IMG/VR virus record: IMGVR_UViG_3300045988_097776
Source of the DNA: a virus
Length of the DNA: 64,000 nt
Direction: 5' to 3' (one strand)
The translations under genes were made by a program, and so were the position numbers. Under the pieces are notes generated by a model, which was given only the letters and a program-made list of their open reading frames with translations, was not told where the DNA came from and ran no database searches. Below, in pieces: positions 27,543 through 63,264 of this stretch; position 1 is the first letter of the stretch; each line of letters starts with the position of its first letter.

Positions 27543-27544
27543 TT

Positions 27545-27580: not shown

Positions 27581-27603
27581 TATTGAGAAAAAGGAGATAT
27601 AAT

Positions 27604-28140
27604 ATGAAAGATAAGTGTATTGTTTATAATAAAAGTGCGGGCCGCGCGGTATATAAACTGCCTGAGCTTGGTGTACGTCGTATGTTCTATCCAGGTGAGC
27701 ATAAAGAGATTAGTGTATCTGAGCTTGAAAAGTTGGTTCAAACACCCGGAGGCCGCAAGCTGATTTATAATTATCTATTAATTGATGATAAAGAAATTAT
27801 TGAATATCTTATTAATGGGAAAGTTGAACCAGAATATTGGTTAAAAGAGAAAGATATTGATTCGTGGATGCAGTCATGCTCTTTGGATGAATTCAAGGAT
27901 GCTCTTGATTTTGCCCCTGATGGGACAAAAGATTTGATTAAGGCTCACGCGGTTTCTCTTCCTTTGAATGATATTTCAAAGCGAGATGCGATAGAAAAAC
28001 AATTAGGTTTTAACGTTACTAAAGCGTTGGAATTAACCGCGGACGAAGGAAAAAATTCTAAAAATGAGGTTAAGCCTGTTAGAAGAGCATCGGTTGCAAG
28101 TGATGATACTCCAAAGCGTAGAGTAACTATATCCGAGTAA
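27604..28140 (+). CDS. hypothetical structural protein, about 178 aa
   Basis: AAAAGGAG RBS plus ATG at 27604; no TAG codons. Confidence 0.4.
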   Translation: MKDKCIVYNKSAGRAVYKLPELGVRRMFYPGEHKEISVSELEKLVQTPGGRKLIYNYLLIDDKEIIEYLINGKVEPEYWLKEKDIDSWMQSCSLDEFKDALDFAPDGTKDLIKAHAVSLPLNDISKRDAIEKQLGFNVTKALELTADEGKNSKNEVKPVRRASVASDDTPKRRVTISE

Positions 28141-31284: not shown

Positions 31285-32679
31285 ATGCGTTTTGGTATTC
31301 GTGAGATTTGCGATGTAGTGCTTCGTGCGAAGAGTTATCAAACCCTTGGTAATCGTAAGTTCTACAAAAATGAACCAGTTTTATATTTCGACACTTTAAG
31401 AACCTCTACTCTTGAGGGTGCTGCAACAACAGTATATGCGCAGGGCGGACGTGGATATTCTAGATTGATTGCTTGGGAAGGTGAGCGTACTCTAACCTTT
31501 ACAATGGAAGATGCTCTACTCTCTCCAGAAAGCTTCTCTATTCTTTCTGGTGCTGGCCTACTTGATGCAACAAAAGAAGCTCCTATCTATGTTCACCAGA
31601 CTTCTCAGATTGAAGTTGAGACTGCCAATACTATTATTGTTCCAGACAAGGCTTGCTGGAATGGATTTACTGACCATGATAATGAAATGTATCATCGTTC
31701 TGCCGACATCTTTGTGATGGTTTTAGGTGATGATGGTCAGGTTAATGCCGAGCCTTGTATTCCTGTTTCTGTAAGTTACACAGAAGATGGCAAAACAACT
31801 TTAACTTGTTATTCTCATGCGGGTGTACTTCCTGCGGGAACCATTGTTTTAGTTGACTACTATGTAAAACGTACCGGTGGAGCACAAATGATTGAAATTA
31901 CTGCTGATAAGTTTGGTGGTAACTATTATCTTGAGGCTTCAACTCTATTCCGTCGTGAGAGCGATGGCGTGGATATGCCTGCTGAATTTATCATTCCTAA
32001 CTGTAAAGTTCAGAGTAACTTCACATTCAGCATGGCAGCTAACGGAGATCCTTCTACCTTCACCTTTACAATGGATGCTTTCCCTGATTACACCAAGTTC
32101 GACCAAACCCATAAGGTATTGGCTGCAATTCAAGTAATTACTGATGAAAGCGGCGAGACCGAGGAAACTCGTGAGCCATGTTCTGAGAATGTAGGCACTT
32201 ATGAGAGCGAAGCTGCTGATGTGACTGTAAGTTTCGTATCTAATAGTGCTACAGCCGCAGAGCTTGATGTTACCGGTAATGTAACAGGAAAAGCTTATGA
32301 TACTGAGGCCTATGGCGATACTATCGCAGAAGCTGCTCAGATCAGCCTACAAATTCCAGTAGAGAGCGATAGCACCCAATATAATGTGGTAACTACAAAC
32401 CCAGCTTATGAGAAATACTTCTCTACAGACCCAAGAATTGAAGGTAATACAAAGACTCAAACCGTTAGTGGCGAAGAGTTGGCTCAAGGATTGCTTGTAA
32501 TTCTTACCAGCGAAGATCAGGCAACTCCTATTACCGCAAAGATTAATAAGATTAATGGTGATTTTGAAAAGAGTTATACCATTAACAACAAACTTAGCTT
32601 TGCTACATCTACCGCAGCAAAAGCTAAGACTAGCATTCGCAATAAGTTAGTCTCTGTCACCGAGGATGACGGAATTTAA
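31285..32679 (+). CDS. major tail protein (tube, or possibly sheath), 464 aa, no TAG
   Basis: GGAGG RBS. Large TAG-free gene followed by a strong terminator, located upstream of the chaperone and tape measure. Confidence 0.5.
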   Translation: MRFGIREICDVVLRAKSYQTLGNRKFYKNEPVLYFDTLRTSTLEGAATTVYAQGGRGYSRLIAWEGERTLTFTMEDALLSPESFSILSGAGLLDATKEAPIYVHQTSQIEVETANTIIVPDKACWNGFTDHDNEMYHRSADIFVMVLGDDGQVNAEPCIPVSVSYTEDGKTTLTCYSHAGVLPAGTIVLVDYYVKRTGGAQMIEITADKFGGNYYLEASTLFRRESDGVDMPAEFIIPNCKVQSNFTFSMAANGDPSTFTFTMDAFPDYTKFDQTHKVLAAIQVITDESGETEETREPCSENVGTYESEAADVTVSFVSNSATAAELDVTGNVTGKAYDTEAYGDTIAEAAQISLQIPVESDSTQYNVVTTNPAYEKYFSTDPRIEGNTKTQTVSGEELAQGLLVILTSEDQATPITAKINKINGDFEKSYTINNKLSFATSTAAKAKTSIRNKLVSVTEDDGI

Positions 32680-32736: not shown

Positions 32737-34173
32737 ATGGATATTGATATTTATGATTATGTTTAGCGTTGGTCTATTAACTATATTGTATATCACAGTA
32801 GCCATTTGAGAGAATATGGCGACGTAGAATCAGCGAATACCTTATTCAGCGCATAGTATCAATAGGCAGTAAATAAAGCATAGACCGCGGGAATTGAGGC
32901 TTAGATCTCCTCAATTCAAGAATAGATGCAGCTAAAAGCGCCTTCCGCAGCCAGTGGATTAAAGATTCTAAGTGATCTAGAGATAGGAACCCTATTAGAC
33001 TCTACTCTTGATTAGATTGCCGCCGGTATTAATGAGGGTATTGAATTAGCTGGTGGATAGGTAGATTTTGAAAACTATAATACTATATTGCAATAGGTTG
33101 GAAGCTTTAATAACTTGTTATCAACTGGTACACCGGAAATATAGAGAGTGAATGATTTCTTTAGGTTACTTATATCAGCTTTAACGAAAGCGAATATGAT
33201 AAATGTTAATGTTCTTGATGCTTTAACATAGATTGGAAGATAGCTAATAGGAACTAGCTTTTAGATAGATTAGGCATAGCAAAGTTATGTTATGGCTGTT
33301 GGCAAAGGAGATATAAATATCGCAAAAGATGTAATAGATTCTTTAAACAGGGCTGTTACTCGTTTAAGTGAATAGGGATCAGTAAACTCTCGTTCTTTTG
33401 CTAATACTATTGCTTATATATTTAGAAGGGTTATTGGAAATTAGATTAGTTAGGCGATAGTTGCAGAGGGTATATCAATAGGAGTTAATACCGCGGATAG
33501 TATATTAGATAAGGTAATCGCGCAATCTGGTGGAAAATTGCGATGGGTTGATAAAGGATAGAATAATGTCTCTAAGTCTAAAGGTACTACAAATATATTT
33601 AATAATGATACCTTTAGTTTGCAAGTAACCAAGGGCAATCAGACTTTTAATATAGAGATAGGGACAAATGTAAATGCAAGATGGCAAAATAAGAAAATGT
33701 CTTAGAATAAAATTTCTGCTTCTTCAAGTATGAATGTTGGAGAATATTTTTCTGGTTAGCCAGAGAAGTATCTTGCTTATAATATGATTGCTCATAGATA
33801 TACTGGAGCTGATTTTGAAGAATCGTTTAATAATATACGGGCTTCTGTTGCAGCGTCCTTCTTTAATTAGTGGATTCAGTCTAGTGAGTTTAGTTCATAG
33901 AAGGGTCATTTAGGATAGTTTATTATAGTTAATGGTAGAGTATTTTCAATCTAGCGAATTATTAATAATATCTGTGATGATATTGTTAGAAATAGTGCTC
34001 ATGAAGTGGTTTCTATTGGTGGAGAAGGCGCTCTGGGTAATAAGTGGTATGGCAATTCTGGAGCAAACATATTAGATGCAATCACCCGTAGTAATATAGT
34101 CAATGGAGTTATAAATAAATTAACTATTGCAGCAACTTTAAATAATAATATACTATCTAAATACGCATATTAA
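32737..34173 (+). CDS. structural protein of unknown function, 478 aa, with about 30 in-frame TAG codons (over 6 percent of codons)
   Basis: GGAG RBS plus ATG at 32737. One frame stays open to TAA 34171 when TAG is read as a sense codon. The product is globular-looking (…IGTNVNARW[Q]NKKMS[Q]NKISASSSMNVGEYFSG[Q]PEKYLAYNMIAHRYTGADFEESF…). Its neighbours have zero TAG. Confidence 0.5.
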
Positions 34174-34236: not shown

Positions 34237-34767
34237 ATGACTTTTAAAGATTTGGGGCTTGAGCCTAAAGTTAAATATACAGAAGTAAAGGTTGGAGCAG
34301 ATAAGATTTTGTCTGTGGCTAATTATCTTCCTATTGCTGATAAAACAAATCTTATTATGTTTGTCACTGATTTATCAATAGATGAGGCAACTGGCTGTTT
34401 TAGTCCAGTTAGAGTGGAGACCTATTTTGCTATTGCTATATGCAGATGGTATGGCGGAATTACTTTTGAGCCAGAAGATGTGCATGAAAATATCGCAAAA
34501 ACCTATGACACTCTTGAGACAAACGGTGTAATTGATGCAATTCGTGATATTATTCCGGTGGAGGAACTATCTTTTATTGAGGATTTAGTTAAGGATACTA
34601 TAAGCGATATTTCAAGATATAATAGTTCTGCGGCCGGCATTATTCAGATGATGAATAAAAATGCTTCTGGTCTTGATACATATATTACTGATATGCTAGA
34701 AAAGATTAAGAATGGTGAAAATCTTGAAACACTATCAGTAATTAAAGATGTGGTTGGAAAAGATTAA
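34237..34767 (+). CDS. tail assembly chaperone candidate, 176 aa, no TAG
   Basis: Acidic protein immediately upstream of the tape measure. Confidence 0.45.
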   Translation: MTFKDLGLEPKVKYTEVKVGADKILSVANYLPIADKTNLIMFVTDLSIDEATGCFSPVRVETYFAIAICRWYGGITFEPEDVHENIAKTYDTLETNGVIDAIRDIIPVEELSFIEDLVKDTISDISRYNSSAAGIIQMMNKNASGLDTYITDMLEKIKNGENLETLSVIKDVVGKD

Positions 34768-34877: not shown

Positions 34878-37800
34878 GTGGCTAATAAAAGATTAAACTA
34901 TTAGATTGGGTTTACCGCTGACGCGAGTCAGCTAAAAACCTCTGTTAATGAAGTTATAAATAGTTTATAGAAATTAGGCAATTAGCCATCTATTTCTAGT
35001 GAACTTCAGTAGGCATCTTTGGCGGCCCTTGAATTGAGCCGTAATCTTTAGATGGCTACTAATGGAAATTCAGGTAAGTTAGATTTGACTGCTTTTAATG
35101 ATAGTTTAGTAAAAAGCGGAAAGACTTTAACAGACTATTATAATCAACTAAGCAAACTGGGAATTTAGGGGCAAGAAACATTCTTAAATCTTTCTCAGGC
35201 TATTATGGCGGCGGAAACTCCGTTAATCAGAACTAATAAGTTAATGTCTGATTTGTGGATTACAATGAAAAATACGGTTCGTTGGTAGATTACAGCAAGC
35301 ACTTTATAGGGTTTTATTGGCTCTTTAGAGACAGCTTATGGTTATGCAAAAGATTTAAATGAATCTCTGACAAACATTCGTATAGTTACTGAAAATTCTG
35401 CCGAGGATATGGCTGTTTTTGCTAAGTAGGCTAACGAAGCAGCTAAGGCATTGAGTACAACTACAGTAGATTATACTGACGCAGCTCTGATTTACTATCA
35501 GTAGGGCCTTACTGAGTAGGAAGTTTTAGATAGAACTGAAACTACTATAAAAATGGCAAACGCCGCGGGTGTTAGCGCTTAGACTGCATCTGACTAGTTA
35601 ACTGCGGTATGGAATAACTTCTATGATGGAAGTAAAAGTCTTGAGTATTATGCAGACGTCATGGTGCGCTTAGGTGCAGATACTGCATCAAGCTCTGATG
35701 AAATTTCAGAAGGTATCTAGCAGTTTGCCGCAGTTGCAGAGACGGTAGGTTTGAGTTATGAGTATGCCGCGTCTGCGCTTGCTACTGTTACTGCTACAAC
35801 TCGTGAATCTGCGAATACTGTAGGTACTGCATTTAGAACATTATTTGCACGTATTCAGGGCTTAAATCTTGGAGAAACACTTGATGATGGAACTACTCTA
35901 AATAAATATTCTTAGGCTCTTGATAAAGTTGGAATTAACATCTTTGACGTTAATGGAGAAATCAAGACTATGGATACTTTATTAGATGAAATGGGAGAGA
36001 AATGGGAAACTCTATCTAATGATCAATAGATTGCATTAGCACAGACTGTAGCTGGAGTACGTCAATATACTCGTCTTATTGCTCTTATGGATAACTGGGA
36101 TTTCTTCTAGGAAAATTTGGAGAGTTCTTATGGAGCAGAAGGATCTCTACAAGAACAAGCAGATATTTATGCTGAATCTTGGGAGGCGGCAAGAGATAGA
36201 GTAAGAGCATCCGCGGAAGATATTTATGATAGTTTAATAAATCCTGATTTTTATATTGGGGTAGATGATGTTCTTAGTCCTATTTTAAGTACAACTGCTG
36301 ATATTATTGATGGTTTAGGCGGAATGTCTGGCGTTTTAGCAACAACTGCTTTACTGATGAATAAGGCTTTTGGTGATAAGATTGCGCAAGGAATGAGAGA
36401 TATTGCTTCTAATCTTGGTATTATCGGATAGAGAGAAAAGGATAGAGCGCAAACTTTGAGAACTGAAGCCGCATAGATGGCTGATATTATCGCGAAATCC
36501 GCACTTGATAATACTATTTAGGGATAGATGGTAAATACTCAAGCTTAGATTGTTTAGCTTGAAGGAGAAGCGTCCGCTGCGGCCACACAACTATCTGAGC
36601 GCTAGGCTGGTATTTTACAACAAGATTTAGATAGAGTAAAGGTTTTATAGACATAGGTTAATTTAATTGGGTAGTAGGTTAGCAAATCAGATGAACTTAT
36701 TACAGCTTATACAAATAGTTTGTCTGAGCGTTTAGTTCCCAATAAAAAATGGAAGGATAATCTACTATCGGCGCTTGTGTTAGAAGATGAAAATAAATTT
36801 TCTTTTTATGAGGACATAGAAACAGAAATTCTCTATAGTTCAAAGACAAATTAGCAAGCCCTTTAGAGTTTAATTGACAAATTAAAAGTGGCGAGCGTAA
36901 GTCTTTCTAAGTTTTAGCAAGTATAGAAATTAGTTGGTTCTGGAACCAATGAAATCTCTCAAGAAACTATTAATTTAGTAAGAAGCCTAAATCTTTTTGA
37001 AGGTGCTCAAGATGCAACAAATTAGGAGATAATAGAATATCTTACTACCTCTTAGTAGTTTTAGGAAGCATTAAAGGGGGCAGAATCAGACGTTGCTGCA
37101 TTAAATAGAGTTATTACTTCTTTAGGTGATGGTTCTGTTAAATTTAAAAATGATCTAAGTGGTCTTGTAGCAGCTTTTAAGAATAATGAAATTAGTGTTG
37201 AGGCTTTTAGATAGGGATTAGAATTATTACAGTAGAAAACAAAAGAAATTAGTGAGGGGTTAAAGAATAACAGATATGCTACTTTAGACTGGGCTGAGAC
37301 ATTGGTTAAAGTAGGAACCACTTTATCGCAAGTTACAATGGGAATGACAAGTATTAATTCCATGTTCTCTACTTTTACAAATTCTGTGAAAGAGGGAGAG
37401 TTTACTGTTGAAGATTTTACAGTTATTCTTACTAACTTTGGAATGTTATTACCAACAATCTCTACCTTGTTTAAAAAGCAGGCATTACAAAATAGTTTAA
37501 CTGCAATATCGTATTTAACAGTTGGAGCTTCAGCTAAAACTGCGGCTGCTGGTATTACTACTGTTGGTGCGGCTATCTCAACTGCTTTACCACTTATTGG
37601 GTTAATCACTTTGGGAGTAACCTTACTTGTTAATGTTATTTCTCTCATTATTGTTACGGAAGAAGAGGCTAGAGAAAAAATATCTAGTGCTACCTAGGCT
37701 TATGAGGATTAGAAATCTGCATTAGAATCTTTAAATTCTGAATTATAGACAACGAAAGATAGAATAGAAGAATTAAATAATTAGGATTCTTTAAGTATAG

Positions 37801-40800
37801 TCGAACAAGAAGAATTAGAAAAACTTAAATAGGCAGAATCTTCTTTGTAGAGATAGGTTGAGTTACAAGAGAAGTTAACAGAAGAAGCGCAAAAAGCCTA
37901 GGCAAAAACTATCGAAGAGAATTATGATAAATCTACTAAGAGTTTGGCAGGAGGACCAGATTTAACCTAGTGGAGAAGTTGGAATGAATACAATGGAGAC
38001 TAGGACTGGTTTAAAGAGTTAGAATAGAGCATGGATTTAAATGATCCAAATGCTCAATTTGTACTTGAATAGAATAGATATACTTATAAAGATTAGTACG
38101 TAGATGCAGACACTTGGTTTAATAGTATTACTTAGGGCCTTGATAAAAATTCTGATGCCTATCGTGATTACTTAGTAGAGTATCAAGATTGGGTTACTCA
38201 AAATGAATAGATTACGGCACAGTGGGTAACTGACAATTCTGAAGCTATATAGCAAGCAGAAGATGATTATGCTGCATATATTAAATCTGTTACTGACGGG
38301 GTTATTGAGTATAATCCAGAAATGATAGCTTCAATGCAGGAGCAGTTATCTCTTATTCGTAAAAATCTTTATGGCAGTCAAAGTGAATATGAAGAGGTTA
38401 TATTAAAACCAATTTTAGATAACCAATCAGTTAAATAGATTTCTACTTAGCTTTATAGCACTTTGGCTAGTAGTGATATTAGTGCAGCCTCTGGTTTGAT
38501 AACAGAATCCATTAAAAATGAATTAATGTTAGCTGGAGTCAGCGTAGATGAGTTTTTAACTTTTGTAGATAGCAGAGTAGATGAAGCAAAGGAAAAAGTA
38601 GAAAGTAAATTTAGTGATTTTGATTTTGATTCTCTATCAAATGAGGATTGGGAAATCCTTATGGATGTCAATATAGATAATTTTGATGCGGTTGAAGAAT
38701 TATAGGAATTTTTAGATAATTATAAAATTAATGAAATAAATATAAATGTAAAGGGAATAGACGACTTAAAATCTATATTGGAAGAATTAAATAATAGTTA
38801 GAGTGCTCTTGAATCTGCCTTATAGTCATATAAGGATCAAGAAGGCTATCTAACCATGGATCAAGTTCAAGAACTCATTAATGCAGATGAAAGATATGCT
38901 TAGTATATTGTTAAAGTTGGAGATGCGTATAAACTAACAAATTAGTCTCTTTAGACATTTTTAGATTCTGAACGACAAGAAGAGCAAATTCTTGATGCTA
39001 CAATAGAATCTATGAAAGAAAAATATGGGGTAAATACTGATTATCTCTAGAATTATATTAATATGTGGGATGAATTAGTATCGCGAGCCAGTGATTCAAA
39101 TGCAATAAATGATTATACGTTTACAAGTGAAACTGATGTAGAATTGTTTAAAGAGAGAACATAGGCCCTTAGTGATAATGCGAAAGCGTATCAGGAGGGG
39201 GCAATATCTGCCCAAGAATATTTTGATACGATTAATAAAAGATTAAGTAATATAAATGCAGGCTTTCATAGATTAAACGAAGAAATTGACGATAATATAG
39301 AAGAAACTGATTTATATGAAGCTACTTTGGTCGCTGCAACCGGGTCTATAGGGGATGGACTGATAGATTTAAATAAAAAGTTTAAATCTGGAACCATCAA
39401 TATGGATGATTACTATGAGGGAACAATCGCTGCCACGAAAGCATTAATTACGGCTTAGTCTAAATTAAATTAGAATATTACAAAAAATACAGACGGAGTT
39501 TGGGAACTCAGAGATGGAGTAGATCAAACTACAATTTCTGAGGAAGAATATGCCAGAACCATGTCTGATATATCTAATTTAAATACTTGGGAAAAACAAG
39601 TGAGCGATGCCCAAGACATGATGGGAATTGTAAATAGTTTAGTAGATAATTACGATTACTTATTAAACTATGCTGATAGCTTTGGAGCGATAGATTTTAC
39701 CATTGATAATAATTTCGATACTACTGCGACAGAATTTTAGGCAATGGTATCAAGTATTGGACAATAGCTCGTAGGACTAGAATAGACTAATAACGAATCT
39801 TATAAAAGGATTCTCTAGGGTGTTCTTGATTAGGGAATAACGCTAGCAAATGGACTAGATACAAGCGCCGATGCTTTAATGCAAGCAATGTCCACTGATG
39901 CTAGTATCGCTGGAGCCGTTATTAATTCTACTATGTCCGAGAGTGCTAATACAATTAGCTCAACTTCATAGGCGGCTGGGGCTGTTCTAACAGCACTAGG
40001 AGATTTAATTTCTAATTTTGAATATGATTTAGGTTTTACTCCATATGTAAAATCATGGGGAAAATTATAGATAGATGATTGGCTAGCTGGCAAAGCGGAT
40101 CTTCCTTTTGAGCTTCCCACTCTAGGATTAAAAATTTCCGGCGAGGGCGGAGATGCTATTGGTAATTTTACTAATGCTCTAAAAGAAGCTGGTTCATATT
40201 TATCTTCTTAGGGTACGGGATCTGGATAGAATGGTATTTTTGATTATGGTTAGGAGCCATTTGCATTTGATCCTGATGGAGCATTAGATCCGAATAGAAT
40301 AGCAACAGACAATATTAGAAATAAAGATTCTGGCGGAGATAACGAAGGTACAAAATATGATGCCGAAGATGAAAAAACTCTTGAAGATATAGAAGATAGA
40401 TACCATGAAATAACTCGTGAGATTGAGAATTAGAATAATTTATTAGATGATATTGGTAATAATATAGATAGAGCATATGGAGCGAAGAAATTATAGGCTT
40501 ATTAGAAAGAGCTTCAAGAGTTAGAAAAACAGCAAGCTAATTATAATAAGATGCTTGATGAGGCTGAGACCTATCTTGAGAAAGATAGATCAGACCTTCA
40601 AGGATTATTCAACAATTCTCTTACTTTTGATGAAAATGGAGAAATTGAAGGTTATCAAGACGTTCTTCAATCTATTGTTGATGATTATAATAATAACTTC
40701 TTAACCGATTACAACGCTTTCTTATTAATGTTTAGCAGTCTTACTAAAGATGAATAGGAGGCTAGATAGGCAGAATATGATAGTTGGCAATTACAAAAAG

Positions 40801-43577
40801 AAGTTGCTGATGAATTATTCTAGGCTCGTTAGGACGCTTTAGCTCAATATGAAGAAACTCTTGACAAGATTCAAGATGTAAAAGATGAGCAAGAAGAGCT
40901 AGAAAGAAATATTGCAGATAATAGATTAAATTAGATTGAATATAAACTTGAAGTTGCGATAGATATAAAAGATGCTAAAGATGCGGTTAATGAGCTAACA
41001 AGACAAATAGCAGAATCTTTTGGTGATGAGCTAACTCATGGAATGGAAGTCGCTCGTATTGATAAAAACAGTATGAACGAGAACATTGAAATCATCAAGA
41101 GCTATGAAGAAGCCCTTAAAAGTTATCAGGAAGAATTAGCTAATGCCACAGATGCGACTAATATTGATGAGATTGTAAGTAAGTTATCTGACTTACAAGG
41201 TAAAATGATTTCTACCGCAGAGGCTTTGCTTGATTGGGTAGAAGGTCTTGAAGAAATGCTACCAGATGCATTAGATGCCGCGTCAGAAAGATTTGCAGCT
41301 TTTACTGATTAGCTTGACCATAATGAATCCGTTCTAGGACTTATCAAAGAACTATATGCTCTTTAGGGAGTTACATATAAGACTGAGGAAGGATTTGAGT
41401 AGCTTCAGGAAGTAAGCGAAGAAACTATGAAGGCTCAGGTCGCCAATGCGCAGCTAAATAAACAATGGTACGATGGAATCCGTCAAGAACTATTGGAAGC
41501 TCAAGCTGCACTAGACGCATTAGGCGGAGATGAAACGGATCCTGCATATGATGGTTTAAAAGCTAATAGAGATGCTCTACTAGAAGAATTTAATGAAGCA
41601 CAAGAGGCTATGTTAAGTTCCGCGCAAGCTGCTATGGAGACTGCTTAGGAGATGTATACTCAAGCTATTGAAAGAGCAGTATATGAATTTGGATAGGCTG
41701 TTTCTGGTGGAGTAGGATTAGATCTACTACAAGACAAATTCGATCATTATATCGAACAAGAGGATAGATATTTAGATAAAGTAAATGAAGCGTATGAGGT
41801 ATCTTCTTGGTATAATAAACTACAACAGGATATTGATAAGGCTACTAACTCTAAGATGAAAGATTAGTTAAAATAGCTACAAGAGGAAATTGATATACGT
41901 AGAGAGAACAATACCTTATCTGAATACGATTTAGAAATTCTCGAAGCTAAGTATAATGTTCTTTAGGCTTAGATGGCACTTGAAGATGCTCAAAATGCGA
42001 AAAATCAACTTAGACTAGTGAGAGATAGTCAAGGTAACTGGAATTATCAATACACCGCAGATGCGAGCCAGATAGCTGACGCAGAATAGAATTTGCTTGA
42101 TGCGGAGAATGAGTGGTATAATATAGCAAAGCAGTAGGTAGAGGATGTTACAGGAGAGATTATTTCTACTTGGCAAGAATGTCAAGATAAGATAAAAGAA
42201 ATCTATTCTGATATGACCTTGACTGATGAAGAAAGATCTGCCCGCGCGCAAGAAATCTATTCTTATTATACGCAGAAGGTTAAGGACCTAGAGAACGAAA
42301 AATAGATCGCTATTAAGGATATGACCGAAGCCGGCAATAAAGCTTTAATTGATATGGCTATTGTTGCGGGAGACGAGGTAAGTGACCTAACTGGAATTAC
42401 AAGTCAAGAAATTCAAGATATTATAGCTAACTCTGGCTCTAGCATTATTGATTTGTTACTATCAGATAACGAGTAGATTCAAGATATAGTAGGAAGTAAT
42501 ACAAAACTTATTGACCTATTTGATAACGTATTTGCGAAAGACTTAGCGAATATGACCGCTAATGCCGGCAACTTTGAAGAGTTTTTATCTAATGCAATGG
42601 ATGAAGCTAGCGGAGCGATGGAGGATTATCAAACTACTGTTTCTGGAGTAGCCGATTAGACTGGAACAAGTCTCGATGATTTAAAAGATTATATCGACGA
42701 TGTTTCAACTTCTACTGATTTGTGCTCTGAGGCTGGATCAAATGCCGTTACTTAGATGTTAGAATAGATAAGCACTATTCAAGATTTAAGTCAAGAGTAT
42801 TTAGATATGGCCGATTCAGTCAGAGAATATATAAGAGCGCTTGAAGAAGCCGCTAGAGCTGCTGGTAGCACAATAGAAAGTGCAGGAAGTATAGATAAAG
42901 ATGACTTACCTTCTTCTGATTCAAGTCAATCTTCTGATACTGATAAAGGTAACTCAGGTAATAGTGGTAGTGGATCTTCCAGTAGTGGAACTGGAGGAGG
43001 TAATGGAATCCCCGAAGTAGGAGATGAAGTTATTTATACTGGTGGAACTTACTATCATGATTCTTATGGCACTGATCCTGCTGGTAGACGCGGTCCAGGT
43101 AAAAAGGTTAGAATAACAAACATAGCTAAGGGTAGACCTTATCCAATCCATGTACAGTCCAATAATTCCGCTTATGGATGGCTAAAAGAAAGTTAGATAA
43201 GTGGCTTCGATACTGGAGGATATACTGGAGAATTTGATAATGCTAAATTAGCTTTCTTACATGAAAAAGAGTTAGTTTTAAATCAAGAGGATACGAAAAA
43301 TATCTTGGCGGCGGTCTCTGCTATGAGAGCCTTTGGACCTAGTTTTATAGCCTCTATTGAGAAAACTCTTGACGGGAACGCACTATCTATTTCTAGTATT
43401 ATGGCATCTAGATTGGGAACTAATACCTAGATTGCGCCGACAGATAATGTGGTTTAGCCAAATATAAATATTGAACGAGTTGAATTCCCCAATGCGACAT
43501 CTTCTGATGAAATTCAAGATGCTATTCGTAGTTTGGCGGATGATGCTACTCAATGGGCGAATAGAAGAAAAGAATAA
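34878..43577 (+). CDS. tail tape measure protein, about 2899 aa, many tens of in-frame TAG
   Basis: All listed ORF fragments in this span (36117, 37302, 38463, 40551, 41043, 41427, 42807) are in frame 0 and join across TAGs. It carries TMP motifs (…SEGI[Q]QFAAVAETVGLSYEYAASALATVTATTRESANTVGTAFRTLFARIQGL…, …[Q]TVAGVR[Q]YTRLIALMDNWD…) and the canonical C-terminus …SGFDTGGYTGEFDNAKLAFLHEKELVLN[Q]EDT…. Confidence 0.85.
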
Positions 43578-53483: not shown

Positions 53484-54074
53484 ATGCCAACTGTTGGTCA
53501 AGTATATTATAATGTAATAGATAATAACAGTGGTAGCTACGTCTCTAGTGGGTAGAATATATTTAGTGATATTATTGCCTAGGTAGGAGCCTCTCAATTT
53601 AATAAAGTTGGGGTATAGGCTCCTGCCGGCACAAAAATAGTTATGAATGAATCAAAGACTATTATGGTTGGTAGAACTGGAATATATGAACTAGATGATG
53701 ACATAGCTATTACTAATATGTATTTTATTAGACCTAGAAAGTATGAAAAAGATGAAGAAGCCTCCTAGTAGGCGATTGAGTAGGGAACTGAAGGAATGTA
53801 GGCTGCGGATAAAAAACGAGCAGACGATTTGGAACAATTTTATAAAGAAAATCCAGTTATGCCAGACCCGGATACAGATCCAGAGGGATATAGAGCTTAC
53901 TGGGATTCATATAATAATATTTAGACTACCTATATAGAGGCTTATTAGACAGCATTAAGTTTGTATAATTAGGGTGTAAACGGTATATATGTGTTACCCA
54001 ATCCTGATAATATTGATGCTCCAGAGAACTATTAGGATTTGTATAATGTTATTATTGATTTTATCTATGTATAA
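53484..54074 (+). CDS. tail structural protein, about 196 aa
   Basis: AAGGAGG RBS; several TAG. Confidence 0.3.
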
Positions 54075-54088
54075 GGAGGTGTCAAACT

Positions 54089-55999
54089 ATGGAAAGTTTC
54101 TATGGAGGACCTAAAGGTAGAGATTTTGATATTAAGGAAATCTTTACTAGCAAATATTAGATGGATAGAGATTTATCAAAGGGTTGGACATCTTCTATCT
54201 TCCCAGGTGATCTCGTTGTTGTATCATATGGTTTGCCAAGCGATACAAACTATGATATTTATAAGAATGAAGATTTATAGAATTATGGGAAAAGCTATAA
54301 CTCTACTCTTTGGCAAAAATGTTATAATGATAAAGATGGAAGCGGATCTGCGGGCGGCCTATACTATAAGATGATAGCTTCCATGACTGGTAATACACCA
54401 AGAATTAGCTTAAATGACACAGAAGTCTTGGATGCAGATGAAGATCCAAACGTGGTTTGGGATAATACCGATCTAGATAGACTTTGGCTTACTTTTCAGT
54501 TACCATAGAGTTAGAATATCTAGTTAGGAGAGACTACTATTCTGGATTGTAATGAACTTCCAGAAGCGTCTTTAGACACGACCGATATAAATAATCCTAG
54601 CTTAAAGTTGTCCTTACCGCAATCTTAGGTAATTAATACTGCATTAGTAGAATTATTAGATGTAGGTGAAAATCCAAGAGTATCTTTAGAAGTTTCAGGA
54701 GATTATTCTATCAACAAACCGGCAATTAAGTTTTATCTACCTGTATCTTAGTCATTATAGGAAGGTATTACTACAACTTTAGATGCTAATGAAAAACCTA
54801 GATTTGAAATAAATTTTGATGATATAAACAATCCAATTATTAATTTCTTCTTGCCTCAAAGTTAGGTGATGGGAGATCCAGAAACTACGGTAGTGGGACC
54901 CGAGGAGAATCCATCTGTAGTAATGGATGATTCGAATATTAATGCGCCAGTATTGAAATTTAGTTTACCAGAAGCGGTTAAATTTTACTATGGCGAGTTA
55001 CTAGGCGAGAGAACAGAAGGAACTTACGAAGAAACTAATGATTCTTTTGTGGATTATAATGTTGGTGATTATTACATTAATGCACCAACCGGTTTTATTT
55101 ATAAAGTAATCAATAAAACTGGAACCACTTGTACTTTTTAGTATATAGCTTGTATTTAGTCTCCTCTTCCTACTATAGAAGTTACAGAATTAAAGCCATA
55201 TACAGATAAAGGTTCTGAGTTTGAGCCGACAATTCCTACGGTTACAAGGGAGTTTACTAACGAAGAACAAACTGCCTGGAAGCTAGTTTTTGGGCTGCCA
55301 TCCGCGGTTAAATACACTACTTCATTTGCTTTTGTTGGAATTGACGAAACTGGCTCTGTATCCAATGAAATTACAGCAGATGACACTATAAATATTGATT
55401 TTAAGATTCCTAGAGGATCAAAATTATACTCTGGAACTTAGATTTCTGATTCAACAACATCTACTGTTATTGAGGGTGCGAAAGCTGGAGATTTATATTT
55501 AAATACAGAAACCGGAGATATATATGAATTAAATTCTTCTGGTATATGGGAGAAAAATTCCGGCAATTTAAAAGGCCCTGTTGGCGAGGCTCTTAATATC
55601 GTTAAGAGCTACACAATAAATGAGACAGACACGCTAAAAGATTCTTTATAGAATGGTGTAGATTATATTGAAGAAAACTATGATGGAGAAATTAGCGCGT
55701 AGGATATTTTCTCTATTACGTGGGTAGAATATGAAACTAACCAAGAAACTTCTTACTGGTATTATAAAGCCGCAGATGGAGTGTGGGGAAGAGTCTAGCT
55801 AACCGGAGGTATTGCTAACCTTATTGATAATGATTATAATAATGAAGATGGTGGAGAGGTAACAAATAAAACTTATAGCGTTCATTATATCAACACTTTA
55901 ATCGGTGGAGCTATTACAAATAAAGATAGATAGACATATTCTGCCGAATAGATAGAAGAGTTGTTATCTTGGGGAAGTTTTAGTGATTTAATACCTTAA
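54089..55999 (+). CDS. tail fiber / receptor-binding protein with tandem repeats of about 40 aa, about 636 aa
   Basis: Repeated units …NNPSLKLSLP[Q]S[Q]…, …NKPAIKFYLPVS[Q]…, …NNPIINFFLP[Q]S[Q]…, …NAPVLKFSLPEA… AAGGAGG RBS. Confidence 0.4.
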
Positions 56000-56032
56000 T
56001 TTATATTTAGAGAGTATAAAGGAGGGCCTAAA

Positions 56033-56815
56033 ATGGCTTTATTTAAGATTTTTCGAGGACCAGAAGATAATTTGAATAGTGTACCTCTTCATGAAGGATA
56101 CGCTTATTTCACAGAAGATAAAGGAAATCTCTTTATTGATATTAGTAATGAAGAAGGTGGGCGTTTGCAGGTAAATGCCTATGCTGCTCAAGTTCTAAAG
56201 AATGATATTACTGAGATTGATATTGATGATATTTTTCTTAAAAATATGACTGCCACTGTAGCTCAGGGCGGAACTGGACATAATAGTCTAACTGTAAATG
56301 CTTTATTAATTGGTAATGGAACTAATGCGGTAAAGATGGTTGAAATTGAGGCTGGTTAGGTTGTTATCGGAAATAGCGAGAATGGTGTAACAGGATTGCA
56401 AGGAACTGGCGCTTTATTTGCCGCTACAGCTGGCGCTCCGCAATTTGGAACGCTTCCAATTTCAGTTGGTGGAACTGGGGCAATTAATGCAGCAGGGGCG
56501 AGAACTAATTTAGATGTGTATAGCAAATTGGAAACAGATAACTAGATTAGTGGAAGTACTACGGCAGCTTATCCAGCAACTCTTTCTGCATCAGGTTGGG
56601 TATTAAATGAAGATATGTATACATATACTTATTCCAATACTTCTTTAACTTGCGGAAAAGCAGGTAATGTGCCACCTATTATTAGTTATACTTCTAATCT
56701 TGAAGAGTATAGTAAAATTGATCACGCTGATGCATCAGTTGGGGTTGGAATTACCTTTTATACAAAAGAAAAACCAACAAATGATATTGCTATTATTATC
56801 ATTGATGTAAAATAA
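56033..56815 (+). CDS. tail fiber protein, about 260 aa
   Basis: …TVAQGGTGHNSLTVNALLIGNG… and …LPISVGGTGAINAAGARTNLDVY… match the widespread phage tail-fiber GGTGA…AAGAR…NLG motif. Last gene of the plus-strand late operon. Confidence 0.6.
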
Positions 56816-56862
56816 AAAAAATGGGGAGAACCTTGAAATTAAGGTTCTCCCCATTTTTTTTT
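56811..56862. terminator. bidirectional rho-independent terminator separating convergent transcription units
   Basis: A9-GGGGAGAACCTT-GAAATT-AAGGTTCTCCCC-T9. Confidence 0.75.
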
Positions 56863-57319
56863 ATTTCTCGCAAGGAGGTTTACTATATAAATGATAATGC
56901 GGTTTTTCTTCTCCAAACCATTTCCATCTTAGGTAGTCGTCTAATACTATTGCCAAAAGGCTTAAAAAGAACCAGGCGATAGAGAATGGTAAACAAATCT
57001 ACCCCATAAAATTCAATGGAACGTGAGAATAATCCCAAATACCTAAGCCTAGTTTTACATTTAATACTAGACCAAAGATTAATTCTAAAGCAGTTATGAT
57101 TAAAGAGCCTTTTACTCCTTGAGTAAGAATAGATTCTTCCCAAAGAACGTTCTCATTCATTAGTCCTATTAATAAAAAGCATAAGCCGCCCAATAAGAAC
57201 ATAGACCAATGACAAGTTCCAAAGCTGATAAAAGTTTTATAGAGGAACTCTATACCGTAATATAGAGTTCCTCCAACTGCAAATAGAATTATATTTTTAC
57301 TCACTGTCGGTATCTTCAT
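56861..57319 (-). CDS. integral membrane protein (about 4 TM), 152 aa, 1 in-frame TAG
   Basis: Listed ORF 56999-57319 continues through a TAG to TAA 56861. Hydrophobic segments FAVGGTLYYGIEFLY, MFLLGGLCFLLIGLM, IITALELIFGLVLNV and FSIAWFFLSLLAIVL. Confidence 0.5.
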
Positions 57320-57959
57320 AGTTTAATTCAATAGCTTTTAATTTATCTATTGAATCAGCTTCGAATATCTAAGTTTTATATTCTTGCATTAAATGATATT
57401 TGGGATATACCACATTTGAAATAGCTAAACTTAGAGCGGATAATTGCTCTAAACTCCATGGCACACATTCTTCGTGTCGAGCGTGCCACTCAAGCGTAGG
57501 ATTTTCTACTTCAGCCGCGAGAGCGACTTGATATTGATTGAGATTTAAGCTAATCTCAGACTGGTCCTCCTACGTAATTCCATATTCTTTTCCATCAACC
57601 CAAGTTAGTGGGTGGGTAGCAAGATACTCTGCGAATAGTTTCTTGTTTTCCTCTTGTTTGTCATACTTTGCCTAATCTAAATCAGAAGTGAATGTTCCAT
57701 CTTCTTGATTATATATTGAATAATTAGGAGTAACATCTGATGGAATTGTTTCTATCTCTAATACTTTTACAGCATTAGATTGATTTAATACATCGGCTTT
57801 AATTAGAGTATAATGTGTATCTCCATTTGAGCCGATAACCCCAGTTCCCTCTTCTTCCTCGCAGGCAACGACAATACCATTTGAGGATTGCAGTTTAATG
57901 TAACGTGCTTCTGAAAGAATATCAACTACTACATTCTCTCTATTTAATAGAATATACAT
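57297..57959 (-). CDS. DUF4376-like protein (tail-fiber assembly/chaperone-like), about 220 aa, 4 in-frame TAG
   Basis: The listed 95-aa ORF continues through TAGs (…ATHPLTWVDGKEYGIT[Q]ED[Q]SEISLNLN[Q]Y…). Family assignment is from memory and tentative. Confidence 0.3.
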
Positions 57960-58135
57960 TACTTTATTTCAACTCCTTTAAATAATGAACGAAAATAATT
58001 GTCCATATCTTGAATTATATAAAAACAAGTTCCTTTAGAAATATGTGCCCTCCAACCTTGATAGGATTTCTAAATTTCATCTGTTGAAATTTTACCCTCT
58101 AACCATAGCGCTTGCATTTTCTTTAACTTTCTGCG

Positions 58136-59176
58136 CTAATGAGCCACTTTCTTTTTAAAAGGAATTTGTATTATATGATTAGTGTCTGTGAGATAAAAGT
58201 TCCACTTTAAGTATTTTAATGGAGCGTGACGTTTGCCGTCCGCATGAATAGGAGAGATTCTAGTAATAGTAGTCTTTTTCTTATTCATCTTTAATCCTTG
58301 CTTATTTAAGCGAACTTCTATTCTCTTTTCACATTCGGCTAAGTATTGACTGTCATTGTGGAATAAATATAAATCATCCATATAACGACCATAATACTTA
58401 ATATGTAACTCTTCTTTGATGAAGTGGTCAATTTCGTTCAATGCTAGCAATGCGAATAATTGTGATGTTTGACTTCCTAATCCAAGACTTTTATTATCAT
58501 ATTCATAGTATTTGCGGCCAGGCTTAAAATTAGTGGTACTAATTCTCGTGTATTTGTGCCGTTTACTAATATAATAATCTTTTCCTGGTATGGGAGAGGA
58601 ATCTTTTGTTAGCTTAAAAGAAAATGTATCTATTAAATAACAGCATAGTTGATAAATTCTTTTATCTTTTATCAAACGTTTAGCCGCTTTCTTTAAAGAT
58701 TTATGGTCAATAGAATCAAAATATTTTTGAATATCAATTCTTAACCCATAAAAATCTTTTCCTAATCCATATTCTCTATGAGCTTGTTGAAGATGTTTCT
58801 TTACTCTTTTTAAAGCAAAGTCTATTCCTTTTCCTCTTAAAGTAGCACAATTATCGTAGATAAATCTAGGAGTTAATTCTGGTAATAAAACTTGTTCACA
58901 TAACGCATTTTGTACCAGTCTGTCGTTGATATGACACGCTCTTATATCTCTTGGTTTGCCTCGTTCGATTATCGAAAAACAACTAAACACAAGCTATTCG
59001 TATTCACACGCTCGCAGATCAGCTTCTGTTTTTAAAATTGTTTCTATCCTATTCTCTTCAAAATTAATTGTACTATCTTTCCATCGAACGTTTCGGCATA
59101 CCTTATAAGACGCATCATACATAGTGTCAAAACTACAAAAACGCTCGAAAGTAGTATCTTGATTTATTTCAGACAT
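58136..59176 (-). CDS. diversity-generating retroelement (DGR) reverse transcriptase, 346 aa, 1 in-frame TAG
   Basis: The two listed ORFs (59176-58994 and 58990-58136) are one frame joined by TAG 58994-58996. RT motifs FDSIDH and YMDD (GRYMDDLYLF). The DGR-specific motif LGLGSQTSQ (I/LGxxxSQ) replaces the group-II-intron QGxxxSP. AAGGAG RBS 6 nt before the ATG. Confidence 0.85.
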
Positions 59177-59485
59177 ACTTTCTCCTTATCATGTAGCTAT
59201 AGTAGTAGCTACTCGAGCTCCACGTCTACAGTCTTACTTTATCCACTTTTTCAGTGAAATGGTTAAGTTCTCCTTAGATGAAAAGGCAGATCTACCTATA
59301 GTATATTATTCGATAGTTGTAGAGCAAAGCTCTTTAATGGTCTCTCAATCTCTTCCCCACATAGTGAGTGCAATCCAGAGTAAACCTTAATTAGATGGAT
59401 AATAATATACTCCGGGGTACTATTTAGGCGTTGCTCGTTTGCGCTGCTCCGCAGCTTAACTCGCAACATGATAGCTCCATCTAAT
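59177..59485 (-). ncRNA. DGR spacer region between TR and the RT (expected to be transcribed with TR as the TR-Sp template/primer RNA)
   Basis: About 310-nt non-coding interval between TR and the RT start. Its role is inferred from DGR architecture, not from the sequence. Confidence 0.4.
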
Positions 59486-59585
59486 CCGGCGCGAGCCCGT
59501 TGCTGTTGTTGTAGTTGTTGTTGTTCGCAGATCCATCGTTGTTGACATTGCAAACGTTGTTCGAGTTGTTGTAGTTACGGGACCG
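59486..59585 (-). repeat. DGR template repeat (TR), 100 bp
   Basis: Identical to 60209-60308 except at 17 positions, all of which are adenines on the minus (coding) strand of this copy. Reads as AAC-rich codons (RSRNYNNSNNVCNVNNDGSANNNNYNNSNGLAP). Confidence 0.9.
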
Positions 59586-59615
59586 AAAGATACAGAACTT
59601 AACCGCAGAAAAATA

Positions 59616-60110
59616 TTATCGACCTCTCCTATGGGTTTTAGGAGCCGAATATCTATGCTCGACTATAAGTTTATCTCTATTTTTTCTATCTTGGATTGAT
59701 TCTTTTACTTTCTTAGTCAATCTAGCTAGATGTTCAAAAGATCTTCTTTTCTTTTTGCTGTTCTGAGCATACTAATAAATACATAGGTCGATTTGTCGAA
59801 ATATACTATCACAATATTCAATCGCTCTATTGTGATATTCATTTCTTTTTGTAAGGGTTTCTTTATCTTTTAAGTTTATCCTACACGCCTCATAACAGCA
59901 AGCGTGTATACCCTTTCCGCATTTAATTATATCGTACCCGAACGCTTGAAGAGGTTGACCCTCTCCAAGCAGTCCAGGTTTGCAGATTTGTTTTCCATCC
60001 TTATCAAATTCTCTAGGACGAGTTAAGACTAAAATGTAGCCAACCAATTCACGGGCTTTATAAAGACAGTCTTGTTTTGATAGGTGTCTATCCTTTACTT
60101 TTACAGACAT
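59616..60110 (-). CDS. avd: accessory variability determinant (Avd)-like protein, about 164 aa, 1 in-frame TAG
   Basis: Small basic protein in the canonical Avd position between VR and TR. GAGGGA RBS. The sequence does not look obviously like the classic four-helix-bundle family, so the call is positional. Confidence 0.45.
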
Positions 60111-60191
60111 TTAAAATTTCCCTCACTTGAATATATAATTTTTTTATTGGACAATTTAACCTTAACTGTCCCGAATTGTTATTTTGCTGTA

Positions 60192-61949
60192 TTATCCAAT
60201 GACGAAAGCCGGCGCGAGCCCGTAGCTGGTGCCGTAGGGGTTGGAGTTCGCAGATCCACCGGTGTCGACAAAGCAAACGTGGTTCGAGTGGCTGTAGTAA
60301 CGGGACCGTTCCCAATACCACATCGTTGAATTCGTCAACGAACCATTGGCGTTCATCTGGTATTTAACTCTAGTAGAGTTGCTTGTATAGTAACTATAGG
60401 CCGTCTAACTTCCTCCAACAGTCCACTCCTAATAAGAACTAGCATAGCCGCTAGAGCTAGTAAATCCCATCTCACATTCAGAAGGTAGCCAACATTTTGC
60501 AGTTGTTTGAACATCCGCAGTATTATTCTAATTACCATTACTAGCAGAACTTGTCTTCTTAGTAACAGATTTAATAGAAGCGGTTGCGCTACATCTATTA
60601 CCAAAATCATTGCACAAGGATTGAGCGGTTGAACCATTCCATAACGCGTTACTACCAAATGATGTACTGTTAGGTAAAGTTCCCGCAGTCTGGAAAGTTA
60701 ATGTTCCAGTTCCATCCTAATCAGCACCAATACAAATCATTGTAGCAGCATTTCCCCCGAGGACCGCAGAAGAAAGACTTACGAGTTTCTTCTTGCCTAC
60801 ACAATTTTTTCGCTCTCCAGATGACGCTTTAGCAGCCCATGTTTTTAATCCAGCCCACCATTTAGCATCACCAACAGTAGTTTCAGAACCCCACTCCCAA
60901 TAGCTAGCTGTTACAGTAACAGTCTTATTTCCTGGGGCTATATAGTTGGTTCCCTCTGCGACTTTAATAGTAATAGTAGTAGAAGAAATAGCCGTACTGC
61001 CATCACCTTTAATTGTAAGAACATTTCCACTTAAAGACAAAGTTAAACCAGAAACGCTAGTTGGACTATAACTAATAGCTCCATCTCCAGAACGAGTAAT
61101 GGTAACCTTTACACCGGCACTATAGTTATCTCCATCAAGAGCTACAGAAGTCGGATTTACTGTTAAACTTCCAGCAGCTTTATTAATAGTCCAATTTACA
61201 TCAAGATTTGATGTAGTTCCATCGGCCCATCTATAATTACTATTTAGTGTGAAAGTAGCAGTATAGGTTCCAGCGTTAGTCGCGGAAGTTGTCCCGCCAA
61301 TCGTCATATAAGTGGTATTAAAGTTATTCCAATAGGAAGCACCACTTACTGATTGGCTACTACCAGTATAGGTAAGATTATTCTTCCATGTTGGTTTCGG
61401 CACCGATTTTCTTTCAACAGTAACATTGAAAGAAGCAGACTGAGTTACTCCATTTTCTGTGTAAGAAACAGTAATTTTCTAGGTGCCAACCGCAGTTAAT
61501 GACGTTGGAGAGCAACTATACCCGGTAACCGCGGATGATGTACTATCAGAATAACTTGCTGTAACTACCATTCCTGTTGTTTGGAGAGTGTCTCCATATT
61601 CATAAGTTGTCTTAGTTGGGTTAGTAGTAACCTAAATACTAAGAAGTTTATGAATAACAGTAATGTCTTGAGTGGTCTAACAAGTTTCTCCTAATTCAGA
61701 GTAAGTAATTGTTACTTTAGTAACCCCATCAGTTAAAGGGTTTGGAGTAACTTGATACCCAGTTACTTCTGCTGTTGTTACAATAACGCCGTCCATGCCG
61801 TAAGATGCGGTGACTACCATTCCCGCGGGATTAAAAGTATCACCAGCAAGATAGCTCGTTTTAGTAGGGGGAGTGGTTACTTCAATTTTTACAAGAGAAA
61901 GAGAACCTCCACCTTTTCCACCCTATTCAGCTAAAATACATTTAGGCAA
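60192..61949 (-). CDS. DGR target protein: N-terminal tandem bacterial Ig-like domains plus C-terminal C-type-lectin/FGE-fold variable domain, about 585 aa, about 8 in-frame TAG
   Basis: TTG start with AGGAGGT RBS at 61949. Listed ORF 60717-61403 is in frame and joins through TAGs to …AKCWLPSECEMGFTSSSGYASSY[Q]EWTVGGS[Q]TAYSYYTSNSTRVKY[Q]MNANGSLTNSTMWYWERSRYYSHSNHVCFVDTGGSANSNPYGTSYGLAPAFVIG, then TAA 60192. VR covers the last 35 codons. Confidence 0.8.
60209..60308 (-). repeat. DGR variable repeat (VR), 100 bp, at the 3-prime end of the target gene
   Basis: 17 of 35 TR adenine positions are substituted (to C, G or T) and there are 0 of 65 differences at non-adenine positions. GC-rich IMH-like 3-prime end GGGCTCGCGCCGG. 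Confidence 0.9.
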
Positions 61950-62274
61950 ATTATTTACCTCCTTCTATCTAGCTATTGTTTCAAACAAATCTAAACTACT
62001 AGATAGAAGGTCGAGGATGGAAGCGATCTTCGCTCCAGTCTTTTAGAAAGCCATAAACAATTTCCGAGAAAAAGTACACTTTTTAACAGGAAAAATACTT
62101 TTTCTTCCTAGATAACAAAAAATTGGGAAAAGGGTAAGAAACCCTTTTCCCAAAAGTGAGTATCTTACTCTTTTCAAATATACTTGAAAAAGAGTATAGA
62201 TTGATTATATATGTTTGACCAAGTTCAGTAAAGTGTACTTTTTCAAAAGTTTTAGATGAAAGGAGAATTATGCT

Positions 62275-63264
62275 ATGAATTGTATTTTATAGGGTTAGAT
62301 TAAAGGAGCAAATAAGGAGTTATCTAACCTAAGCAACTACCAAAAAACTCTCCGCAACATCGGTGGGCGACCGAACCGGAACCTTCTGGACAACTGGTAC
62401 TTCGTGGGCGGCGGCTCCCAGCAGGTCGGTGGCCAGTTCCCCATTAACCAGAGGGGGGAGACGAGCCATGCCGGTTCAGGGGGATTCATAGACAGATGGA
62501 AGCTGAGTGGGGAAGGCACTGCAATCCTGGGCAGCGATGGAATCACTTTAACTGCTACAACAGGGAATCTGGAATTTATTCAATTTTTGGGCATTCCAAA
62601 TGACCGTCTATTGGGAGAAACAGTTTGCCTCTCTGGACTGGTTGATGGAGACCTGCTATCGATGTCCACGTCTGCCCCGGAAGAAAAACCGAGTGCGTGG
62701 ACAAATATCATAAACATTATCAAACCGTTTGGATTTGTCCAGTTTAATTATGACAATACGGCGGACAGGTTTTTTTGTAGCGCTATCGTCTCGGCAGGCA
62801 ACAGCGTACTCCTGCAAGCATCTAAGCTGGAGCTTGGCTCCACCCAAACCCTCGCTTACCAGGACGAGGAGAGTAATTGGAAGCTCTTTGAGACGCCGGA
62901 TTATGCCGGGGAGCTGGCTCGGTGCCAGAGGTATCTACTGGTTTTGCCTGGATTCAACACATTGTTTTCAAATATTGGGGTTGGTTCGTTCTTTTCGGAA
63001 ACAGAGGCGGAAATCACAATACCAACACCTACTACGATGCGGATTATGCCGACATGCGCATCCACAGGGAATTGGCTTCTGAGAGGCGGTGGGCAACTTA
63101 TAAATGTAGAAGCGAGTGCATCAAATTTCTTCGTCCAGCAGATGTCCTCAAACGCAGTGAGCATGATAATCAACGGATTGTCTGGGTGCCCAGCAAATCA
63201 AGCTACCCAGCTCTTACGAAGTAATAACAGCACGGCCAAGATTACACTTTCCGCCGAACTATAA
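62275..63264 (+). CDS. tail fiber / receptor-binding-like protein, about 329 aa; GC-rich compared with the rest of the window
   Basis: AGGAG RBS plus ATG at 62275. N-terminus MNCIL[Q]G[Q]IKGANKELSNLSNYQKTLRNIGGRPNRNLLDNWYFVGGGSQQ resembles fiber-tip and receptor-binding domains. GC content rises sharply from about 62330 to about 63470. Confidence 0.4.

Follow-up and report, generated by a model that had tools for sequence, protein, structure and literature searches.

Organization of the Locus

We analyzed a 64,000-nucleotide stretch of viral DNA (IMG/VR record IMGVR_UViG_3300045988_097776; hereafter the window), which carries a diversity-generating retroelement (DGR) on its minus strand. The cassette has the order target gene, accessory gene (avd), template repeat (TR), and reverse transcriptase (RT) gene, which is canonical for a DGR (Table 1). 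The three genes contain in-frame TAG codons, and no TAA, TGA, or frameshift interrupts their 1154 codons. We consider it highly probable that this is an active, canonical DGR in a phage that uses TAG as a common glutamine codon, and that the DGR proteins are full length only when TAG is decoded.

Table 1. Features of the DGR Cassette and Its Surroundings, in Positions of the Window
Feature	Position	Strand	Remarks
DGR target gene (variable receptor-binding or tail-fiber-type protein)	60192–61949	minus	585 codons; TAA stop 60192–60194
Variable repeat (VR)	60206–60307	minus	102 bp; 3′ end of target open reading frame, from amino acid 548
Avd-like accessory gene	59616–60110	minus	164 codons; ATG 60110; TAA stop 59616–59618; TAG 59772–59774 (codon 113)
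Template repeat (TR)	59483–59584	minus	102 bp, noncoding; 14 AAC codons in VR frame
Spacer between TR and RT start	59177–59482	minus	Defined by position only
DGR reverse transcriptase gene	57959–59176	minus	405 codons; ATG start 59176 after AAGGAG; TAA stop 57959–57961
Gene for 220-residue protein	57297–57959	minus	Weak DUF4376 match; start overlaps RT stop
Gene for 152-residue CmpB-like membrane protein	56861–57319	minus	PF06541
Sigma-70-like promoter consensus	62204–62232	minus	TTTACT-17-TATAAT, upstream of target; consensus match only
Bidirectional terminator hairpin	56814–56861	both	20 bp stem; strong; consensus match only

Reverse Transcriptase

A sequence-only reading of this DNA had located one TAG in the RT gene, at 58994–58996, and had ended the gene at 58136. 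The TAG is indeed in frame, as codon 61, but the proposed end is not a stop: 58136–58138 is a sense TAG (amino acid [aa] 347), the frame remains open to the TAA given in Table 1, and a third TAG follows at 58070–58072 (aa 369). The protein gains 59 aa beyond 58136 (…RRKLKKMQALW…SYQGWRAH…). The 405 aa RT matches 1092 database proteins, and the best 120 of these, which are mostly 387–410 aa long, include 114 that cover the extension. This segment aligns to the thumb/X region of group II intron RT/maturases (TIGR04416, aligned with aa 234–397 of the RT, and 7uim, to aa 396), and RTs of standard-code phages, such as Roseburia phage Shimadzu, align across aa 8–403. At aa 347 the relatives carry CAA, CAG, or a glutamate codon rather than TAG, and the RT genes examined all end in TAA or TGA. 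From these alignments, the added C-terminal 59 aa are the conserved thumb of the RT.

The translation contains a GxxxSQ motif (G234-S-Q-T-S-Q239) and the catalytic YMDD, and the top sequence match in PDB is the Bordetella DGR RT (8ub7_A; E 5e-15, query residues 11–162). By these features, the protein belongs to the DGR clade of RTs. A megablast search with 57900–62100 found no match among GenBank phages, in which relatives of the RT are detected at the protein level alone, at 35% identity or less.

The sequence-only reading had proposed that domain completeness be compared between translation table 11 (the standard code) and table 15 (TAG as sense). Pfam RVT_1 matches the RT at aa 73–322 (61 bits), between the first two TAGs, and a bare test of hidden Markov model coverage would therefore seem to refute dependence on TAG decoding. 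The table 11 open reading frame (ORF) encodes 284 aa from an internal GTG at 58990 and scores as well against RVT_1 as the full protein does. The RVT_1 domain is complete in the truncated RT, but the truncated form lacks the N-terminal 60 aa (which align to residues 10–60 of the Bordetella RT) and the whole thumb, and helix 4 of the Avd-like protein and the target are lost as well (see below). The GTG at 58990 is preceded by AGCGTGTGAATACGAATAGCTT, which contains no Shine-Dalgarno sequence. Because of this, and because the product would have neither N terminus nor thumb, we rejected re-initiation at this codon as a source of a standard-code RT.

Accessory and Target Proteins

Avd is a four-helix bundle accessory protein (Pfam PF05635, NCBIfam TIGR02436). 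Structure comparison recovered the Avd fold for the protein encoded here (a 98%-identical database protein was used for structure prediction in place of the glutamine-substituted window sequence), and no sequence-level similarity to Avd or PF05635 was found. The TAG that had been noted in this ORF is in frame (Table 1), and the table 11 product ends before helix 4 and the conserved basic tail. In the family of Avd-like proteins, H69, C100, and C110 are invariant and C72 is nearly so, and a β-hairpin is inserted between helices 1 and 2 (aa ~30–50); the Avd protein of BPP-1 has neither these residues nor the insert. The conserved His and Cys residues may form a metal site.

The target gene starts with TTG at 61949, 7 nt after GAAGGAGG. 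Where about eight TAGs had been claimed, there are exactly eight, all in frame: four at 61923–61925, 61677–61679, 61632–61634, and 61479–61481 (aa 9, 91, 106, and 157) and four at 60717–60719, 60528–60530, 60429–60431, and 60405–60407 (aa 411, 474, 507, and 515). The protein has Big_3 repeats and a Pfam DUF6273 domain (aa 432–584), and the TAGs at aa 474, 507, and 515 fall inside the latter, in agreement with the earlier placement of three TAGs in a lectin-fold scaffold just upstream of the VR. A structural model of a 62%-identical homolog (pLDDT 86) matches the C-terminal domain of Lcl, many C-type lectins, and TvpA, the DGR variable protein of Treponema. By this comparison, the C-terminal domain of the target has a C-type lectin fold, and the VR lies at the 3′ end of the gene. 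Translation with the standard code ends at codon 9, and the C-type-lectin domain is interrupted by three or four TAGs. Homologs cover both sides of every TAG in the DGR genes. Standard-code translation cannot yield a functional version of any of the three DGR proteins.

Adenine-Directed Diversification

The TR and the VR differ at 18 positions, all of which are adenines in the TR (18 of 36), and all 66 non-adenine positions are identical. The VR ends 12 nt before the stop codon of the target and terminates in a GC-rich sequence, GGGCTCGCGCCGG, which resembles an initiation-of-mutagenic-homing (IMH) element; it is common to the VR and the TR, which diverge after it. The window contains one VR in all, and a search for a second found none.

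We recovered the VR from six closely related phage contigs (the window, L003, L004, L008, L009, and L011) and obtained six different sequences, with 31 of the 33 variable positions at TR adenines. Each of the two changes at other positions (G to A in L011; C to G in all five contigs apart from the window) occurs in the TR and in the VR of a given phage alike, which is what continued copying of TR information into the VR would produce; the TRs of related contigs differ at one or two non-adenine positions. The DGR is currently active, with adenine-specific turnover of the VR in the phage population, and both mutagenic retrohoming and an IMH-like element are found at this locus. The RT of L003, which is 99% identical to that of the window, has the same three TAGs. 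Because the VR turns over in the presence of a TAG-bearing RT, the RT does its job and is not the product of a pseudogene.

The VR contains no in-frame TAG, as had been claimed, and neither does the TR. We enumerated the codons that can be reached from the in-frame, adenine-containing codons of the TR (14 AAC codons plus AAT, TAC, GAT, AGC, and GGA), and TAG, TAA, and TGA are all unreachable by A-to-N substitution. The explanation offered earlier, that TAG would need T at position 1, does not account for this, because position 1 changes from A to T in this very VR (AAC to TAC twice, AAC to TCC once, and AAT to TTT once). Stops are out of reach because all of these codons end in C or T, apart from GGA, which stays glycine. 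Stop-free TR codons are a classical design rule of DGRs and are unrelated to recoding.

TAG as a Glutamine Codon

With the standard code, ORFs of 100 aa or more account for 27 kb of the window; the figure is 35 kb if TGA is read as sense and 59 kb if TAG is. The rise from 27 to 59 kb indicates that the TAG pattern is not a product of chance. TAG is present in 45 of the 64 ORFs of the window and makes up about 43% of the putative glutamine codons (TAG, CAA, and CAG together). Late genes (ORFs from 16.5 kb onward) have 2.23 TAGs per 100 codons; the value for the left block is 0.86, and credible minus-strand genes in that block have none. The recoded codons are thus concentrated in late and structural genes, the distribution by which code 15 phages are recognized.

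The residue that homologs have opposite TAG in the DGR genes is mostly glutamine. We compared the RT genes of the window and of two diverged relatives, L001 and L006 (62% and 74% identical to the window RT, respectively). Nine alignment columns are glutamine in all three, and TAG alternates with CAA or CAG in seven of the nine, which include both glutamines of GSQTSQ in the GxxxSQ motif. TAG therefore stands for glutamine and behaves as a synonymous codon, and in this phage group it is interchangeable with CAA and CAG.

The decoder of TAG is presumably a suppressor tRNA(CUA) whose phage gene lies outside the window. A tRNA search of the window found none, nor did Rfam, which gave no match anywhere in the window, the spacer between TR and RT included. 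Contigs that encode the identical window protein have a tRNA array whose start lies ~10 kb left of the window. Two exact-pattern walks in IMG/VR and JGI metagenomes reached this array, and the CUA anticodon is absent among the tRNAs of the portions retrieved (L014, 19913–20143; L017, 273–3825; L018, 96–5247; 10 tRNAs in one stretch and 12 in another). One tRNA of the array, 95 nt in length, has the anticodon UAU and a long extra arm.

TAG use differs widely among the genes of the window. One ORF of 2899 codons has 103 TAGs and another has 25 in 478 codons (5.2 per 100), the two lying among 32737–34173 and 34878–43577. A gene for a FolD-like protein (tetrahydrofolate dehydrogenase/cyclohydrolase; 16505–17335) has seven TAGs, which indicates that recoding extends beyond virion genes. 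Five late structural genes (25781–28140, 31285–32679, and 34237–34767) have no TAG at all, and their neighbors have 2–5 per 100 codons. The five include the genes for the probable major capsid protein (26490–27542) and for a virion structural protein (phrog_2729), and the most strongly expressed genes may avoid the suppressed codon. The region from ~4800 to 16000 has a raised GC content (0.43–0.50) and TAG-free minus-strand genes, such as those for an AbrB/MazE-type regulator (9205–9684) and a macro-domain protein like microbial PARG (15182–15946); several long plus-strand ORFs in this region appear spurious. The block looks like an early or auxiliary module in the standard code.

Dependence of the DGR on TAG Decoding

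The sequence-only reading had proposed that the DGR machinery depends on TAG decoding and, by implication, that diversification has a special coupling to the recoded state. The dependence itself is borne out, for the RT even more strongly than had been proposed, in that no functional RT, Avd, or target is obtained with the standard code, but the special coupling is not, because the same holds genome-wide. The three DGR proteins are full length only once TAG is decoded because TAG is a common glutamine codon that most late genes carry. Compared with the late-gene mean given above, the DGR genes are poor in TAG (0.74 per 100 codons in the RT gene, 0.61 in avd, and about 1.4 in the target gene), but they stay within the spread of late genes: among late ORFs with 150 codons or more, 28% have a density as low as that of RT and avd or lower. 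TAG counts also differ among relatives: the RT gene has 3, 13, and 9 TAGs in the window, L001, and L006, avd has 1, 2, and 3, and the target gene has 8, 1, and 2 (the counts in L003 are 3, 1, and 6). We considered selection as a cause of the low TAG content of RT and avd and rejected it as unsupported, given the 28% of late ORFs that are equally poor and the relative with 13 TAGs in its RT gene. We conclude that the dependence on TAG decoding is generic, is common to most late genes, and is not specific to the DGR.

The interpretation that we favor is that of a canonical and currently active DGR in the tail-fiber region of a gut phage that would translate TAG as glutamine (code 15). With TAG as an ordinary glutamine codon, the RT (405 aa), the Avd-like protein (164 aa), and the C-type-lectin target (585 aa) would be completed only when TAG is decoded, and expression of the DGR proteins would probably be confined to the recoded (late) phase, as for other late genes. 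Recoding reportedly figures as a regulator of late genes in a model put forward by Borges et al. in Nat Microbiol in 2022.

Some observations weigh against this interpretation. The suppressor tRNA was not found in the window or in the retrieved flanks (four DGR-flank loci and three left-flank loci), and the Avd assignment comes from fold and gene order, without a match at the sequence level. In addition, the window, L001, and L006 all have TAG at RT codons 61 and 369, and two such all-TAG columns compare with about 0.37 expected by chance (P about 0.05). Their retention hints, weakly, that selection may act at these two sites, and there is a slight chance that the TAGs at aa 61 (before the fingers) and aa 369 (in the thumb) are selectively retained as translational gates on the RT and on retrohoming. 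If so, the RT and adenine-mutagenic retrohoming would stay off until the phage imposes code 15, and the tail fiber would be diversified late in productive infection, when there are many genome copies, and never in a cell in the standard-code state. We regard as unlikely the broader proposal that the DGR TAGs are selected regulatory gates that tie RT and Avd synthesis and mutagenic retrohoming to the stage of the code switch, beyond the effect of genome-wide recoding. It is consistent with the conserved RT columns, with the presence of at least one TAG in every DGR gene of the window, L001, L003, and L006, and with the position of the first target TAG, already at codon 9. However, the TAG density of RT and avd is below the late-gene mean and is matched or undercut by more than a quarter of late ORFs, the counts range from 3 to 13 in the RT gene and from 8 to 1 in the target gene, and most TAG positions are not shared among relatives and alternate with CAA or CAG. 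Moreover, the same dependence is found in all 45 of the TAG-containing ORFs.

The RT might instead end at the TAG at 58136–58138, as a protein of 346 aa, or this codon might be a leaky stop that gives rise to thumbless and full-length isoforms. Some termination is plausible on general grounds, since a suppressor tRNA competes with release factor 1, and RVT_1 finishes at aa 322, before this TAG. Nevertheless, the conservation of the following 59 aa in 114 of the best 120 homologs, their alignment to the group II intron thumb/X region and to standard-code phage RTs up to aa 399–403, the CAA, CAG, or glutamate codons of relatives at aa 347, and the TAA or TGA ends of RT genes make a stop at this position very improbable. 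Even less credible is the possibility that the TAGs are true stops and that the DGR is decaying, with pseudogenes for RT, avd, and target. All three genes are fragmented under table 11, which speaks in its favor, but they contain no other stop and no frameshift, the same TAG-bearing ORFs are conserved across many metagenomes, and TAGs occur in the same pattern throughout the late region. The ongoing adenine-specific turnover of the VR, together with the covariation of TR and VR at non-adenine sites, effectively refutes it.

Transcription Unit and Neighboring Genes

The DGR is apparently transcribed as a separate unit on the minus strand, from 62232–62204 to 56814–56861. The promoter-like site is a candidate start for this unit, and the hairpin at the other end appears to close both the DGR unit and a convergent plus-strand late operon. 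By analogy with BPP-1, the spacer between TR and RT is presumably part of the DGR RNA. Another terminator-like hairpin (a 13 bp stem followed by a T-run) lies on the minus strand at 62123–62153, between the promoter-like site and the target start; it may act as an attenuator in the leader or mark where an upstream transcript ends. The two minus-strand genes 3′ of RT (Table 1) apparently belong to the same unit and follow one another in the same order in relatives.

Upstream of the target, the segment 62275–63450 is GC rich (0.47–0.55, compared with about 0.34 in the flanks) and contains a tail-fiber-like gene (62275–63264, phrog_4492) that is rich in CAG and has only two TAGs. The window and L003 are collinear, with 92% nucleotide identity over 54000–62304, and the homology ends exactly at 62304, which this alignment marks as a mosaic or module-swap junction adjoining the DGR target.

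Implications and Comparison with Known Systems

With standard-code annotation, this active DGR goes unseen or is given the wrong boundaries; even in the sequence-only reading, a sense TAG was taken as the RT stop and the thumb domain was lost. Unless surveys of DGRs in gut viromes switch to code 15, they will miss some of these cassettes or report them truncated. Diversification based on reverse transcription works normally in the recoded alphabet; in relatives, TAG is present even within the catalytic GxxxSQ. The system is also a stable trait of a widespread phage clade, whose members lie on contigs of about 140–150 kb.

The large terminase subunit (TerL) is 50–51% identical to those of Enterococcus phages H1 and EF1, about 48% identical to that of Geobacillus virus E3, and 44% identical to that of phAss-1, and homologous RTs are located on contigs of 140–155 kb. 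On TerL similarity, it belongs with the large Bacillota-type phages and not with the crAss-like phages (Crassvirales). Code 15 has been proven in gut phages by metaproteomics (PMC9523058), and the phAss-1 group reads TAG as glutamine with a tRNA-Sup-CTA (PMC10607447). The present phage resembles phAss-1 (Phassvirus) and code 15 gut phages in being Bacillota-type, with genomes of about 135–150 kb and a tRNA array, and in using TAG as glutamine mainly in virion and late genes, with early genes largely free of TAG. It differs from phAss-1 in that TerL is only 44% identical and in that its suppressor tRNA is not among the tRNAs retrieved; a term search of the phAss-1 paper (PMC10607447) gave no mention of DGR, retroelement, or reverse transcriptase.

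The DGR closely resembles that of Bordetella phage BPP-1 (mtd, avd, TR, brt) in the order of target, avd, TR, and RT, in an RT with GxxxSQ and YMDD motifs whose best PDB match is 8ub7_A, in a VR at the C-terminal end of a C-type-lectin-fold protein, and in an AAC-rich TR with adenine-only mismatches. It differs in its use of code 15, with three in-frame TAGs in RT, one in avd, and eight in the target gene; in the length of the RT (405 aa, compared with 328 aa in BPP-1); in an Avd-like protein of 164 aa with a β-hairpin insert and conserved His and Cys residues; and in a target built of Big_3 repeats and DUF6273 rather than with the Mtd architecture.

The closest precedent for recoding of a DGR comes from Zeta crAss-like phages, seven of whose DGR RT genes show amber suppression (PMC12386605). 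There, as in the present case, the host of the DGR is a stop-recoded gut phage, TAGs in RT disrupt standard-code annotation and DGR detection, and the targets are C-type-lectin tail fiber proteins. The coupling of a DGR to recoding, having already been noted for crAss-like phages, reveals no new mechanism. The phage analyzed here belongs to a different lineage, as judged by TerL. In the part of that account drawn on here, TAG is mentioned only for RT genes, whereas in the present phage avd and the target gene are recoded too, and activity is shown here by VR turnover. What is new in the present case is therefore the different phage lineage, the recoding of avd and target in addition to RT, and the documented activity of the element.

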